Positions 13,201 to 55,903 of a stretch of DNA of 64,000 bases are shown one piece after another. Position numbers and translations under genes: made by a program. The DNA is taken from positions 13,314 to 77,313 of the forward strand of contig CAZWNL010000011.1 in assembly GCA_964635615.1 (NCBI GenBank), written 5' to 3'. The notes beneath the pieces are model-generated. The model was not told the origin of the DNA. It worked only from the letters and a program-made list of their open reading frames with translations, and did not search any database. The stretch's first letter is position 1. Every line of letters starts with the position of its first letter. Origin of the DNA: an uncultured Bacteroides sp. (lineage in GTDB: Bacteria; Bacillota; Clostridia; Lachnospirales; Lachnospiraceae).

Positions 13201-14025
13201 AACCTTGTAAAAGCAGACCATAAGGCAGATAAAAAATCGGATAATAAAAACGAAGAAAGCACACAAAAGATCGATGCTGCTGTCAGTGGGGTAGTCTCTG
13301 AAAGCAGGGGTGTACTATTTAATAGCAAAGCAATGTCCTGCTTAAGAAACGAATTAAAGAGAATTGCACAAGGTGAAGCCTTGGAGGAAATAATCTCCGA
13401 TGAAATGAACAAGGCGATAGAGCTTTATAACGAATATATAACATTGTCGGAGGAGGAAAAGGCAGAGGTAGAAAACTACGAAGAACTGGCACAGGTATTT
13501 GAAACAATAGGAAATATAAATCATAGGGATGCATCATCTGACATTGATATTGACGGACTTGAATGGTATTATAAGTTAAATGTATATGAAAGGATATTAG
13601 ACAATTCGGTGATTGGCAGACTGGAGCAAATACCGGAAAAGGATTTGAAGGAGCTTTGCTCATACAGCATAAGCATTACAGACCTGATAAAGGACGAAAG
13701 CTATGAACCTGTTTGGGGCATTACGGTCCGTATACCAAAGCCTGATATGGAGGGATACTCAAATGTATTTATAGTATGTCACGGTGATGGTAAGGAAACC
13801 GCTATCATTAAATGTGATGATATAGACGGATATCTTACATTTACGGCATATGAAAATGCCGATTATACTGTTATTGGCACAAATGCCGATTATGAACAGC
13901 TTATAAATGGAGCGGCTGCTGACACCGGAAATGGAATTATATGGGTGTGGATTGCCATAGGAGCGCTTTCAGTGGCAGGTCTTATACTTGTTATAATTAA
14001 AAGAAGAAAATCGGAAAATGAGTAG
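10213..14025 (+). CDS. Large cell-surface protein: signal peptide, cadherin-like beta-sandwich domains, PQQ-like beta-propeller, helical repeats, C-terminal TM anchor
   Basis: ATG 10213 after AAGGAGGAG; signal peptide ending ...LNVSA; propeller-type repeats (LYKLDLKTGEILA, IQAFDAKTLASLW, LYSFKKETGEIV); C-terminal TM plus KRRK. Confidence 0.7.
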   Translation: MITEYKKQGKRIIAAFLAICMILVMPLNVSAAELADGIYEAEVNEGTPTDADKAVKEDADVNTDEAVMEDADVNANEAVSIAADASGMYAASEEGLESLIISTAYSPGSANVILRNETDTSYATSNVFSTGIRNYNLGSVNDNYTTLYFRAKPCEGYDTVTLKYGDGDEKDIKMTNSSPKNAQCILPGKNTFTIEVSGSGKSTVVYTFNLNLIPTLTGLTFDTGEYEQFTDKVFVFGTFEYTLTIPDGAGSVTFNAVPRKDNYTVTYNDSPSPDVAMQGVDKVLVKVSVGEGSDKLENIYTVNIDKKKSSIFKVNTVPEDAVVMVYDKNGLSLKKKNGGYEGLFSTGDYLYTVTKTGYIGVSGSVPAAGGEINVTLNKAPENQPQEVDAQWKNFRDSDVNMGFTDAETPINADETELLWAKKLGSGWANAPSVQIIVDDALIVMAGTSLYKLDLKTGEILAQATMAAAPDWGYTPPAYGNGMIFCPLTGGVIQAFDAKTLASLWVYRDGLKGQSLSPITYADGYIYTGFWNGETQNANYVCISVTDEDTTRADEEKLATWKHKQTGGFYWAGSVAVGDYVIVGTDDGASGTSGSSTLYSFKKETGEIVSKLALEGLGDQRSSMAYDSTTGRVYFTTKGGHLCSAKVDASGTLSQLKNVNYNAQSTSTPIVYKGKVYFATGSGISTTGSSGNVVVADAETLEMYYAVGLKGYPQCSLLLSTAYEKSTGYIYLYSSYNNQPGGISMIKVKPEATTAEEAELIELYDAKGYEQYCITSIICDRDGTLYYKNDSANVLAVGMLAYLKVINKIINLADVNLESEAYLDAAEAAYERLDEEEKAKVTNYGDLINARQVFEKLKAEKNAGDTDELINAIGSVTLESEAAIIKAEKAYAKLTAAEKELVTAYDILKAARKEYDRLKEEEKNKPSVPEPPTTEEQKPTEEQKPTEEQKPTTEEKNPMEEKPATEEIPKVEDDTKVPSDTNGGSDIKRPGGITVGGNLVKADHKADKKSDNKNEESTQKIDAAVSGVVSESRGVLFNSKAMSCLRNELKRIAQGEALEEIISDEMNKAIELYNEYITLSEEEKAEVENYEELAQVFETIGNINHRDASSDIDIDGLEWYYKLNVYERILDNSVIGRLEQIPEKDLKELCSYSISITDLIKDESYEPVWGITVRIPKPDMEGYSNVFIVCHGDGKETAIIKCDDIDGYLTFTAYENADYTVIGTNADYEQLINGAAADTGNGIIWVWIAIGALSVAGLILVIIKRRKSENE
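10366..10449 (+). repeat. 36-bp intragenic tandem repeat, about 2.3 copies (DEAVMEDADVNA)
   Basis: GATAAAGCCGTGAAGGAAGATGCAGATGTAAATACG / GATGAAGCTGTGATGGAAGACGCAGATGTAAATGCG / AATGAAGCCGTG. Confidence 0.8.
13009..13062 (+). repeat. 18-bp intragenic tandem repeat x3 (TEEQKP linker)
   Basis: AC(A/G)GAGGAGCAGAA(A/G)CCT three times, with degenerate copies continuing. Confidence 0.85.
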
Positions 14026-53046: not shown

Positions 53047-53120
53047 GCGGTTGTAGCTCAGCTGGATAGAGCACTTGGCTACGGACCAAGGTGTCGGGAG
53101 TTCGAATCTTCTCAGCCGCG
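53047..53120 (+). tRNA. tRNA-Arg(ACG)
   Basis: Acceptor GCGGTTG/CAGCCGC, D arm GCTC..GAGC, anticodon arm CTTGG-CTACGGA-CCAAG, TTCGAAT; CCA not encoded. Confidence 0.95.
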
Positions 53121-53126
53121 CGAATA

Positions 53127-53223: not shown

Positions 53224-53379
53224 ATTCAGAGGATAGCAGAGTATGCGCCTGAAACCGGAGTTGTAAGACTCTTGCGGTTGACGGAAAAGCAATATAATAA
53301 TATTTATATGGTGTCGGGAGAGCCGGATTATCAGGAAAAAACAGTTGGCGTGAATGCACATATTATGCTACAATATTAA
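53224..53379 (+). pseudogene. cas2: 3' remnant of a Cas2-like gene (type II-like Cas2 C-terminal half)
   Basis: Start-less frame IQRIAEYAPETGVVRLLRLTEKQYNNIYMVSGEPDYQEKTVGVNAHIMLQY*. The P..G.VR.L.LTEKQY pattern is the C-terminal signature I recognise from type II Cas2; an in-frame TAG lies at 53221. Confidence 0.55.
53345..53374 (+). promoter_or_regulatory. Candidate promoter reading into the repeat array
   Basis: TTGGCG-18bp-TACAAT with an extended -10 (TGcTACAAT) at the end of the cas2 remnant. Confidence 0.35.
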
Positions 53380-53478
53380 TAGCGATAAATATAAATTACT
53401 ATATTTAGATGTATAACAAAGGATTAATACTAAATGCCGTAGTTGAATGACCCGCCCAAAATGGTGCATCGTTCAACA

Positions 53479-53610
53479 AATATAGAAACTAATTATGATG
53501 ATAAAGAAAATAAAAGATTTAATAAATATGATATAATATATTCAGCAGGTGAAGTAGCTCAACTAAAAATGAATAAAGAATTTGGTTGTATAAACTTTGA
53601 AGACAAATAG
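53479..53610 (+). pseudogene. Start-less 3' gene fragment directly after repeat 1
   Basis: Open frame NIETNYDDKENKRFNKYDIIYSAGEVAQLKMNKEFGCINFEDK* begins at the repeat edge; very AT-rich. Confidence 0.45.
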
Positions 53611-53638
53611 TAATTTGTTGAATAGATTTGGAGATAAT

Positions 53639-54283
53639 ATGAAAGATTTTTTTAATAATATACGAACACCTAATAAAACCTTAAAAATGAATAAAAAAAT
53701 TATAAATACAATTCTAATATTTTTATTAGGAATAATGTTAGGGGTATTTTCTAAATGGTTAGATAATTTAGGGATTAATGATGCGATATGGTGGCAACAT
53801 ATACTAGGAATATTAGATTTAGGAAATGTTTTTTCTGATTTTGGAATATGGATATTCCTAGCAATCACTATTTCGGTGTTTAGTACAACACCATTAAAAG
53901 CAAGTTTAAATGTATTTTTATTTTTTATAGGTATGACAGTAAGTTACCATTTATATACAATTATGTTCAGTGGTTTTAATCCTAAAAGTTATATGATGAT
54001 TTGGTATGGAATAACTGCTATAACTCCAATACTTGCATTTATTTGTTGGTATGCAAAAGGAAATAATAAAATTTCAATTATAATTTCTAGTGTAATATTA
54101 GCAGTAATGTTATTGTTTTCTTTTAGTATTGGTATTTGGTATTTTTATTTTAAAAGTATAATAGACACATTATTATTTTTAGGGACAATGCTTGTTTTAT
54201 ATGTGAAGCCAAAAAATAGTGCTTATAGTTTATTATTTGCAGTAGTGTTAGCATTAACATATTGTTTAAGATTATATATATAA
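53639..54283 (+). CDS. Multi-pass membrane protein (DUF6518-like), AT-rich
   Basis: ATG 53639 after GGAG; LGVFSKWLD, IWIFLAITISVFS.TP..ASLNVFLFFIGM; several TM segments. Confidence 0.65.
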   Translation: MKDFFNNIRTPNKTLKMNKKIINTILIFLLGIMLGVFSKWLDNLGINDAIWWQHILGILDLGNVFSDFGIWIFLAITISVFSTTPLKASLNVFLFFIGMTVSYHLYTIMFSGFNPKSYMMIWYGITAITPILAFICWYAKGNNKISIIISSVILAVMLLFSFSIGIWYFYFKSIIDTLLFLGTMLVLYVKPKNSAYSLLFAVVLALTYCLRLYI

Positions 54284-54319
54284 CAACAACTTACAATTTA
54301 ACGATTAGAGGTGTAATTA

Positions 54320-54386
54320 TGGATTATGAAAAATTAGAAATTTATCAACTAAAGCCAAAAGTCTAGTAATAATATTGGAAGATTTA
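54320..54386 (+). pseudogene. 5' gene fragment truncated at repeat 2
   Basis: RBS GAGGTG then ATG: MDYEKLEIYQLKPK, continuing as SLVIILEDL in the shifted frame up to the repeat. Confidence 0.4.
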
Positions 54387-54422
54387 GCTGAATGACCCGC
54401 CCAAAATGGTGCATCGTTCAAC

Positions 54423-54584
54423 CAAAACGTTTTTGTGATGATGTTCTTTATTGTGTTGATGCCGCCTTTATACTATGTTTTTATAGGGCTTTGGTGGAAC
54501 AACATAATACTGACGGTCACGGGCGGAATATTTTTGATCGTTCATTTTGTTTATGTTATGGGTAATCTGAGGTTGGAAAATTAG
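54423..54584 (+). pseudogene. Start-less 3' fragment of a membrane-protein gene directly after repeat 2
   Basis: Frame QNVFVMMFFIVLMPPLYYVFIGLWWNNIILTVTGGIFLIVHFVYVMGNLRLEN* begins at the repeat edge; no RBS. Confidence 0.5.
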
Positions 54585-54647
54585 CTGCGGCTTGTCGCGT
54601 AAATTGAGAGATACAAGAATAATAGTGTAAGCAGGAGGAGCGTTACA

Positions 54648-55220
54648 GTGGTTCATTCATACGAAAAAGAAATGGAAGCGGCATTGAGTGAATATTTCGG
54701 CAAAATAAAAGATTACAGCGATTTTGCTGGATACTATTCAGATACAGATCCCGAGTATATAAACGAAATTCGTAACGGTAATTTTGTTATTCATCGGAGC
54801 AGCGCACTTGATTATTCGTTTTTTAAGCGGAATTACGGATATGAAATGCCGGAAGTTTTAAAAGCGTATTATTCTTACGCTCATCCGCCAGTTATAGGCC
54901 ATCATAGGCTCAACCCCTTTGAAAGGGAGGCTATAATACTTTATTCCTCTATTAATCGGGAACGTTTTGCTGGATTGATCTCGGCGGCGGATTATTGGAA
55001 AAAGTACGGTATAGAGAAGTATATTCCAATCGGTTACGTTACATACAATGGATCAGCTGTTGTTCTGGAACGGGATACGGGAAGGGTTTTCGTGGAGTTT
55101 GGCTTCGCGGAGGATCCTGCGGACGACGAGGACGGGAAATTATATCCCACTCCGCTTGCGGAGGATCTGATGACCTTTATACGGGAAACAGAGCCTTACG
55201 GTTTGGGGGTAAGCGAATGA
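54648..55220 (+). CDS. SMI1/KNR4 (SUKH)-like immunity protein
   Basis: GTG start after AGGAGG; YGYEMPEVLKAYY, YIPIG, DTGRVF, LAEDLMTFI pattern. Confidence 0.6.
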   Translation: MVHSYEKEMEAALSEYFGKIKDYSDFAGYYSDTDPEYINEIRNGNFVIHRSSALDYSFFKRNYGYEMPEVLKAYYSYAHPPVIGHHRLNPFEREAIILYSSINRERFAGLISAADYWKKYGIEKYIPIGYVTYNGSAVVLERDTGRVFVEFGFAEDPADDEDGKLYPTPLAEDLMTFIRETEPYGLGVSE

Positions 55221-55284
55221 AAAGAGAGCTTTGCTGCAGTACGTGTATCGGCGGCGGAGAAGGACATATCTTTTGGGAGACTGA

Positions 55285-55752
55285 GTGATAATGGATATTA
55301 AAGATTTTTTATTTGGTGAGCGATTTACAAATGAAGATTTTGCTCTTTTTTCAGAAACTGAATTATCAGAAATAGAGGTGTTATCTGAGAAAGAAGCAAG
55401 TAATATATGGTATGATTACTGTGATGATGAAATATTGCCCAAAAGTTCATTTGCTATTAAAAACGGACTTGGTAAGTTGCTGCTTATTACGAATGATTGC
55501 GGTTGGGGCGAGGAAAAAGAAGAGAATGATACAAGATTATTAATTAAAAACACTTTGAGTAAATATATTGATGGTCATATTAACGTATGCTATTATAGTG
55601 ATTGTGCATTAAGAGTTTCTACGAGATTATTTTGTGAAAAATGGTCTGATTTTTGTTATCCATCAGATTATTTGATAATTGATTTTGGCGAAAAAGCACT
55701 TTTATACTATGAAGATAGGCTCTTTTATCTCGATAAAATAGATAAAACATGA
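55285..55752 (+). CDS. DUF2947-like hypothetical protein, AT-rich
   Basis: LSEKEASNIW...WSDFCYPSD pattern; abrupt shift to AT-rich DNA near 55280. Confidence 0.5.
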   Translation: MIMDIKDFLFGERFTNEDFALFSETELSEIEVLSEKEASNIWYDYCDDEILPKSSFAIKNGLGKLLLITNDCGWGEEKEENDTRLLIKNTLSKYIDGHINVCYYSDCALRVSTRLFCEKWSDFCYPSDYLIIDFGEKALLYYEDRLFYLDKIDKT

Positions 55753-55800
55753 ATATTCTGAGTTGAATGACTAATTTCGCATCAAATAGCTCCATAAAAT

Positions 55801-55829: not shown

Positions 55830-55831
55830 AG

Positions 55832-55903
55832 CTGGGCTACAAGGATTCGAACCTTGAAATGCTGGAGTCAGAGTCCAGTGCCTTACCATTTGGCGATAGC
55901 CCA
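55832..55903 (-). tRNA. tRNA-Gln(CTG)
   Basis: Minus strand TGGGCTATCGCCAAATGGTAAGGCACTGGACTCTGACTCCAGCATTTCAAGGTTCGAATCCTTGTAGCCCAG; anticodon arm CTGGA-CTCTGAC-TCCAG. Confidence 0.95.

Follow-up and report, generated by a model that had tools for sequence, protein, structure and literature searches.

Long foreign DNA at the spacer position: a candidate ‘mega-spacer’ in a decayed, type II-derived CRISPR array of the Lachnospiraceae

How does a block of 909 bp with only 23.2% GC come to lie flush between two copies of a 36-nt repeat? The block, interval 1, is in a 64,000-nt stretch of DNA, ‘the window’ (positions 13,314 to 77,313 of contig CAZWNL010000011.1, assembly GCA_964635615.1), of a 2.83-Mb genome that was deposited as an uncultured Bacteroides sp. 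and is placed by GTDB in the Lachnospiraceae. This genome is G000 below; other G and L labels denote the other genomes and loci compared. The answer that we on balance judge probable, with restrained confidence, is that interval 1 is a ‘mega-spacer’, a fragment of a mobile element from a bacterium of about 25% GC that was placed by CRISPR-type integration in an orphaned, Cas9-less array of type II derivation. The best supported view is of foreign DNA cut blind to gene boundaries and taken up in the style of spacer acquisition. A link to spacer acquisition had been suggested by a sequence-only reading made without database searches, and it is strengthened by the Cas2 remnant and leader ahead of the first repeat and by the intact type II Cas1-Cas2 that stands beside the same repeats elsewhere.

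The locus and its repeats

From 5' to 3' the locus consists of a cas2 remnant, a leader, repeat R1, 909 bp, repeat R2, 1339 bp and a degenerate repeat, R3', the whole being flanked by tRNA-Arg and tRNA-Gln genes. Its features, in window coordinates, are:

53047..53121, + strand: tRNA-Arg(ACG), conserved left landmark (ARAGORN and Rfam); also found ahead of the orthologous locus in G046 and G047
53224..53379, + strand: 3' remnant of a type II cas2, start-less, 51 codons and stop
53380..53441, + strand: AT-rich leader, ending in the conserved motif TACTAAATRYRGT
53442..53477, + strand: R1, 36-nt CRISPR-type repeat GTTGAATGACCCGCCCAAAATGGTGCATCGTTCAAC
53478..54386, + strand: interval 1 entire, the 909-bp, 23.2% GC foreign insert at the spacer position
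53478..53610, + strand: 3' fragment of a P0124-like gene, its last 43 codons and stop, cut exactly at the R1 edge
53639..54283, + strand: P0001, intact gene for a 214-aa multi-helix membrane protein, with its own ribosome-binding site
54319..54366, + strand: gene start of 15 codons (MDYEKLEIYQLKPKV, then stop), with a good ribosome-binding site ahead
54387..54422, + strand: R2, second repeat copy, with GCTG... instead of GTTG...
54423..55761, + strand: interval 2, 1339 bp, with parts of 42% and 30% GC and two small accessory genes
55762..55793, + strand: R3', degenerate terminal repeat (GTTGAATGAC, then diverged)
55831..55903, - strand: tRNA-Gln(CTG), conserved right landmark (ARAGORN and Rfam)

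R1 and R2 agree at 35 of 36 positions, 34 nt of them in an exact run, and are the sole full copies of the repeat both in the window and in the genome. The repeat folds as a hairpin with a 9-bp outer stem (-16.2 kcal/mol, z -5.6); no Rfam family matches it, and a search of the window for an anti-repeat copy found none besides the repeat's own palindrome.

Is this a CRISPR locus? The direct repeats expected of one, identical and of 23–50 nt, are there as two 36-nt copies and a degenerate third, the last lying distal to the leader and conserved between species; homology with the orthologous locus of G047 starts exactly at 55762, with all sequence upstream of it being different. Adjacent cas genes and a leader are represented by the cas2 remnant and the conserved leader. 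The remnant's four PDB matches are all to Cas2 C-termini (best 5xvn_E, E 0.026), it matches TIGR01573 (E 0.0037), and it is 83% identical to residues 61-108 of the product of the full cas2 that precedes the same repeat in L013. The leader end, TACTAAATRYRGT, is conserved ahead of the first repeat in the arrays of L013, L073, L041, L042, L075 and L020. Promoter-like hexamers are present at 53345-53405, in a regional number not above shuffle expectation. Because Cas2 remnant, conserved leader, repeats and degenerate terminal repeat occur together, the locus is a decayed type II-derived CRISPR locus. What it does not have is the short, unique spacers of similar length (about 26–72 bp) of such loci, but intervals of 909 and 1339 bp.

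The structure is not a product of assembly, since it is found in independent Logan unitigs. One of them, from three samples, matches with 100% identity from a point within R1 to one within R2, and a second covers R2 through interval 2 to tRNA-Gln. A search for other strains through the flanking and cargo proteins gave only unitigs, which break at repeats or tRNAs.

In interval 2, where one of the two accessory genes matches DUF2947, the GC content falls from 42% to 30% near 55280, between the two genes (55217-55290), and this interval may be a composite of two sources.

Foreign origin and ragged ends of interval 1

With 23.2% GC versus 40.2% for the window, interval 1 is the lowest 909-bp stretch of the 64 kb, 4.8 standard deviations under the mean of 909-bp windows, of which the lowest that does not overlap it has 32.2%; the GC content jumps at both R1 and R2. 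The start-less frame at its left edge matches residues 37-79 of the 79 of P0124 at 77% protein identity (E 2.6e-12; phmmer against 1.84 billion representatives), and its DNA is 84.6% identical (blastn) to the P0124-type gene of L080-L083. Since homology begins at 53478, the first base past R1, this is a gene cut in its middle at the edge of the repeat. The full P0124-type gene is found in contigs of 24–25% GC, behind a tyrosine integrase, a Mob_Pre relaxase and a DUF6809 gene; these are small mobilizable elements.

The membrane-protein gene P0001 is whole, 214 aa being the length of most of its 1522 homologs (best 91% identity). The DNA that holds it is 93% identical to L023 and L078, over 53603-54299 only, and its relatives too are in contigs of low GC content (24–26%). 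Its product matches no Pfam, NCBIfam or PHROG family, and the AlphaFold model is all-helical with a mean pLDDT of 48.

The right end is less tidy. The MDYEKLEIYQLKPKV frame ends at its own stop, 54364-54366, 20 nt before R2, and its first 11 residues resemble the N-terminus of four-helix-bundle proteins (TIGR02436, 23S rRNA IVS-type) of about 110–120 aa. The degenerate pattern YEKLE[IV]YQL is found at the N-termini of four-helix-bundle proteins in the metagenome contigs L086, L091, L093, L094 and L095, with that of L093 matching TIGR02436 (E 3.5e-17). These are N-termini at the level of the family, the donor not being among them; the stricter metagenome pattern MDYEKLEIYQL gave no match. A second frame runs from 54346 into R2, and a frameshifted right-hand gene start that reaches R2 is possible; under either frame only a stub of the four-helix-bundle-type gene is present.

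Much of what the sequence-only reading had made of these letters stands. It had taken the interval for very AT-rich foreign DNA, as the sliding-window GC and the 24–26% GC relatives bear out, the start-less frame to 53610 for a gene cut at the R1 edge and the membrane-protein gene for intact, and both are as it said. At the right it was correct about a gene start, given the four-helix-bundle-type N-terminus, and mistaken in having that frame cut at R2, 20 nt beyond its stop. It had also allowed that the flanking frames might be there by chance, which the homologs of the left one contradict; the right one matches over its 11 N-terminal residues only.

Where did the DNA come from? The reading had looked to a donor locus lacking the repeat, in which both end fragments continue as full genes. 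Half of this was found, the left gene being present elsewhere in full and with no repeat copy; among the contigs read, none has all three interval 1 genes adjacent, and in every one the P0124-like gene and the membrane gene occupy different contexts. The converse idea, that the donor already had the repeat at both ends, gains no support, the repeat being absent from the donor-type loci read (best chance match 17–19 of 36). BLAST of interval 1 against plasmid and phage collections gave no match.

The donor-type contigs of 24–26% GC have features of their own. In them the membrane gene lies within long one-strand rows of small unrelated genes (YcxB, AAA_21, DUF4275, LOR, DUF5301), and a short palindrome, GACAAATAGTAATTTGTC, overlaps the stop codon of the gene preceding it (window 53600-53620; L024 3440-3475 and 4646-4710; L023 3960-4000). 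Homology between these contigs starts and stops at the palindrome junctions, as if they held cassettes of another kind. In the sister species G001 (C13; L004 1517-2171) a frameshifted, 77% identical copy of the membrane gene is in an island of 24–27% GC, where it adjoins a gene for 293 aa which by eye resembles a metallo-beta-lactamase-fold hydrolase. A distant paralogue of the membrane protein, 46% identical, is encoded by the host itself in a region whose GC content is ordinary (G000:C33:1230-1781, L118).

A repeat family with long intervals and its Cas1-Cas2

The exact core of the repeat is in the genomes of 12 other species, mostly Lachnospiraceae; the repeat occurs in 10 of the 59 genomes of the window's genus and in 24 of 401 sampled across the family, nearly all of different genera. 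The 43 intervals of this repeat family, from more than 20 genomes, are 240–4015 bp long and none is near 30 bp. Since the lengths span a 17-fold range, there is no length selection, and the supposition in the sequence-only reading of a length-selected fragment has to be given up.

Close relatives of the window locus are instructive. G000, G046 and G047 have the same site, leader, R1 and terminal repeat, with wholly different intervals; the relatives thus hold other intervals and not an empty site. The truncation of cas2 is common to G000 and G046, and in G047 the remnant itself is deleted. In G046 (L021 5058-5117) there is, about 600 bp past the fourth repeat and ahead of tRNA-Gln, a second cas2 3' end with the start of a leader, which hints at a tandem or rearranged array. 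G000 also has a canonical array of 132 repeats of about 30 nt with a period of 63–67 (G000:C8:1-10700, L099), adjoining another cas1-cas2 pair, of a different type; its presence means that ordinary CRISPR arrays assemble normally in these data.

What stands beside the long-interval arrays? In L073 (G177, a 100%-complete genome) there is a full-length type II Cas1 (TIGR03639, 241 bits against a cut-off of 120; PDB 5xvn_A, 3.9e-33), followed by cas2 (TIGR01573, 47 bits) and then the repeat; the neighbours are an HTH regulator, a Mob_Pre relaxase and, 2 kb from cas1, a large serine recombinase. The nearest other Cas1 proteins in Lachnospiraceae are 33–37% identical, and canonical arrays with a 66-bp period lie beside five of the six loci of those relatives examined. 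Cas9 (TIGR01865) gave nothing above cut-off in G000, G177, G368, G243 and G011, four of which are 99–100% complete. Of what defines a type II system, L073 thus has the Cas1 and Cas2, and the Cas9 effector was not found. The repeat family sits beside a distinct clade of type II Cas1-Cas2 without Cas9.

In G368 (L074) cas2 is followed by nine repeats, and cas1 itself is cut at a further one: this extra repeat is upstream of cas1 (L074 9189-10345, G368:C145), which begins only at about residue 101, right after it. The stretch of cas1 fragment, cas2 and leader is therefore bounded by two repeats, and it may have come about through self-insertion into cas1 or by rearrangement. Directly upstream comes a prophage lysis module.

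The edges of the intervals are revealing. G368 provides a donor-to-array junction: one interval matches, over its final 263 bp and at 96.6% identity, a segment of the same contig about 19 kb upstream of the array. The homology ends exactly at the repeat; past this point the source has unrelated sequence and lacks a repeat. In L018 the repeat edges cut into Pfam domains (N6_N4_Mtase 181-217 of 221, HicA 8-53 of 58 and HicB 1-33 of 51), and overlapping parts of a single gene occur in neighbouring intervals; three intervals hold overlapping, 91–95% identical pieces of one large gene (LPD3 domain) with differing end points, which suggests repeated capture from related elements. Also in L018 (3832-6861), four direct copies of the repeat stand between two inverted ones. 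Intervals tend to end in TTT(R) directly before the repeat, the 97%-identical source in G368 being cut right after CCCTTTTG; position -3 is T in 29 of the 43 intervals, of which 23 come from a set of 33 (p 3e-6) and 6 from a hold-out of 10 (p 0.055), so that an end preference for T is possible. An A-rich interval start (A at +3 in 20 of 33) was not replicated in the hold-out (3 of 10) and was dropped.

The repeats themselves differ by a mean of 1.4 mismatches within arrays and 4.3 between them, with none of 2000 permutations as extreme. Array-specific repeats therefore fit duplication of a resident repeat in place, and not cassettes that bring their own site. The cargo is miscellaneous: a phage CHAP lysin, a Fic-HicB pair, a transposase fragment, a GH28 enzyme, an AAA ATPase and SMI1/KNR4 proteins have all found their way between repeats.

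Routes of entry and what they would mean

According to the mega-spacer reading, the Cas1-Cas2 integrase of this clade would have attached a double-stranded fragment, left untrimmed, by both of its 3' ends to the two ends of the repeat; gap repair would then have duplicated the repeat, as in ordinary spacer acquisition, with the length ruler dispensed with. That Cas1-Cas2 did the joining we infer from association and anatomy, and the timing and lineage of the capture, like any present function, are likewise deduced. In G000 the array is probably now a fossil, since the cognate cas1 and most of cas2 are missing, though the intact membrane-protein gene might still be read from the leader side.

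Several things sit awkwardly with this. Known Cas1-Cas2 complexes measure the length of their substrate. The cas1 beside such arrays is mostly damaged, truncated or frameshifted (L013, L014, L074, L034 and L037), G000 has no Cas1 of the cognate clade and the window retains a Cas2 remnant only. The truncation of cas2 is apparently common to three species whose array contents differ wholly. Cargo open reading frames (ORFs) are co-oriented with the array, as given by cas genes and leader, in 39 cases versus 17 (p 0.005; 33 intervals from 17 arrays), or 6023 versus 2028 codons, which suggests selection for expression or an unexplained directional step. Many intervals hold complete genes, often being nearly filled by one, and neither this nor the co-orientation would be expected from blind capture alone. 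Finally, no experiment or strain series displays an insertion, and no pair of arrays with a common interval reveals leader polarity. As to the wholly different intervals at the common site of G000, G046 and G047, there are three possibilities: turnover with enzymes supplied in trans (for instance by a mobile element such as that of G177), replacement of entire arrays by recombination, or an ancestral array, once long, that lost different parts in each species.

The strongest competitor, unlikely to our minds and yet deserving of attention, leaves the making of the interval to Cas1-Cas2 and moves it elsewhere: interval 1 would have arrived ready-made by homologous recombination between repeats, either from a circle of one repeat and one interval out of another array, or through replacement of a whole array by way of its leader and terminal flanks. 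The three orthologous loci, alike in leader, R1 and terminal repeat and entirely different in their intervals, speak for this; G000 has no cognate Cas1; the single-base difference between R2 and R1 would be natural; and the intact cas1-cas2 and array of G177, being on a mobilizable element, tell that arrays travel. On the other hand, repeats are array-specific and unmixed, not one of the 43 intervals is common to two arrays, and 36 bp is short homology for RecA-type exchange.

Are the cas genes mere neighbours or relics? The hairpin repeat might be the site of an as yet unidentified site-specific recombinase or HUH enzyme, and the whole an integron-like platform. The strength of the hairpin, the mostly co-oriented cargo, the many intervals with one or two complete accessory genes, the inverted repeat copies of L018 and the large serine recombinase near cas1 in L073 all lend this some colour. 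We nevertheless think it improbable: no recombinase recurs, there being none in the window, around the L074 array or in L013, and it is Cas1-Cas2 or their remnants that do recur beside the arrays; further, genes are cut at the repeat edges, and repeats within an array are identical, unlike attC sites.

The comparison with integrons goes deeper than the hairpin, since there too gene-sized units stand in a row at one site, mostly co-oriented and with a possible promoter at one end. Here, in contrast, there is no IntI (the Pfam scan of the 20 largest ORFs of 39.8–64 kb of the window has no integrase), no cassette has a variable attC of its own with, usually, one complete ORF, and the ends are ragged and cut through genes. 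The sequence-only reading had set integron cassettes aside, and with no integrase nearby, array-specific repeats and such ends it was right to do so. An att-bounded mobile element would be expected to have an integrase or transposase and to leave an empty single-repeat site in relatives, and neither was found. Casposons come closer in mechanism, in that a Cas1-family integrase inserts kilobases and duplicates the target site. They differ in that here Cas2 is present, unrelated fragments accumulate at one leader-linked site, and the duplicated target would be a 36-nt CRISPR repeat. The terminal inverted repeats of casposons are missing, the ends of interval 1 sharing by eye at most about 4 nt in inverted orientation; nor does interval 1 encode a recombinase, a family B or other polymerase or a cas1, and no polymerase gene is in the loci read.

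To type II adaptation modules the likeness is considerable: a TIGR03639 Cas1, a TIGR01573 Cas2, a 36-nt repeat, a conserved AT-rich leader, a degenerate terminal repeat, and inserts that derive from mobile elements and phage. The differences are that here no Cas9 was found, that the Cas1 is 33–37% identical to its nearest canonical relatives and that inserts are of 240–4015 bp and not of 30 bp; the repeats of the canonical neighbour arrays differ in sequence from the strongly palindromic repeat here. A full-text search of the literature turned up no account of a type II Cas1-Cas2 that lacks Cas9 and has kilobase spacers. The nearest published case found is SiL-E1 of Sulfolobus islandicus LAL14/1, a piece of conjugative plasmid of about 2 kb with five ORFs, flush between two perfect CRISPR repeats, which its authors ascribe to faulty protospacer processing or else to recombination with matching spacers (Open Biol 2013; PMC3718332). 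SiL-E1 happened once, in an archaeal array that is normal in other respects and has its full cas genes; here long intervals are the rule without exception throughout a repeat and Cas1 lineage, and there is no effector.

The second of the two scenarios in print for the SiL-E1 pseudo-spacer (PMC3718332) can be transposed to the present locus: a foreign element would have recombined, by double crossover, with two normal spacers that were already in the array and matched it. It has the merit of giving flush edges with no special integrase. We hold it very improbable, however, as no array of the repeat family has a normal-sized spacer to act as substrate, and as it explains neither a trait found throughout a clade nor the many unrelated sources within one array. 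An assembly chimera at a short repeated sequence deserves virtually no credence, for though many carriers are metagenome-assembled genomes, the independent unitigs reproduce both R1-interval-R2 and R2-interval 2-tRNA exactly, the pattern recurs over many independent assemblies, of which one bears the title of a named strain, and the 132-repeat canonical array of G000 was assembled correctly.

Two other candidates were rejected. A mobile 36-bp hairpin that inserted into contiguous DNA is at odds with the abrupt change in GC content and homology at each repeat, and a tRNA-linked island with att repeats with the facts that the repeat is not part of the tRNA and that no integrase is present.

Seeing interval 1 as a mega-spacer accounts for a 23% GC island beside housekeeping genes. 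A bolder proposal, which we advance tentatively and would stop short of calling likely, is that an offshoot of type II CRISPR without Cas9 is alive in the Lachnospiraceae of gut and rumen, one whose ruler-less Cas1-Cas2 writes 0.2–4 kb of incoming DNA flush between hairpin repeats at one leader-linked site, travels on mobilizable elements and is outlived by its arrays; these may be a platform for gene capture and expression, not a library of guide RNAs. Interval 1 would then be one such capture, with its ragged ends kept, and a capture-and-expression platform would explain both the co-orientation of the cargo and the intact accessory and immunity-type genes.

The matter is directly testable, as there is an intact copy in G177 and, in G368, a donor-to-array junction at 97% identity. 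If true, the view of the CRISPR integrase as a molecular ruler would need revision, and a compact two-protein tool for the insertion of long DNA would be at hand. For the bacteria themselves, this clade of Cas1-Cas2 would be a natural writer of long DNA, specific as to site and independent of sequence, and it would provide a route of gene acquisition besides transposition, integron recombination and phage integration.

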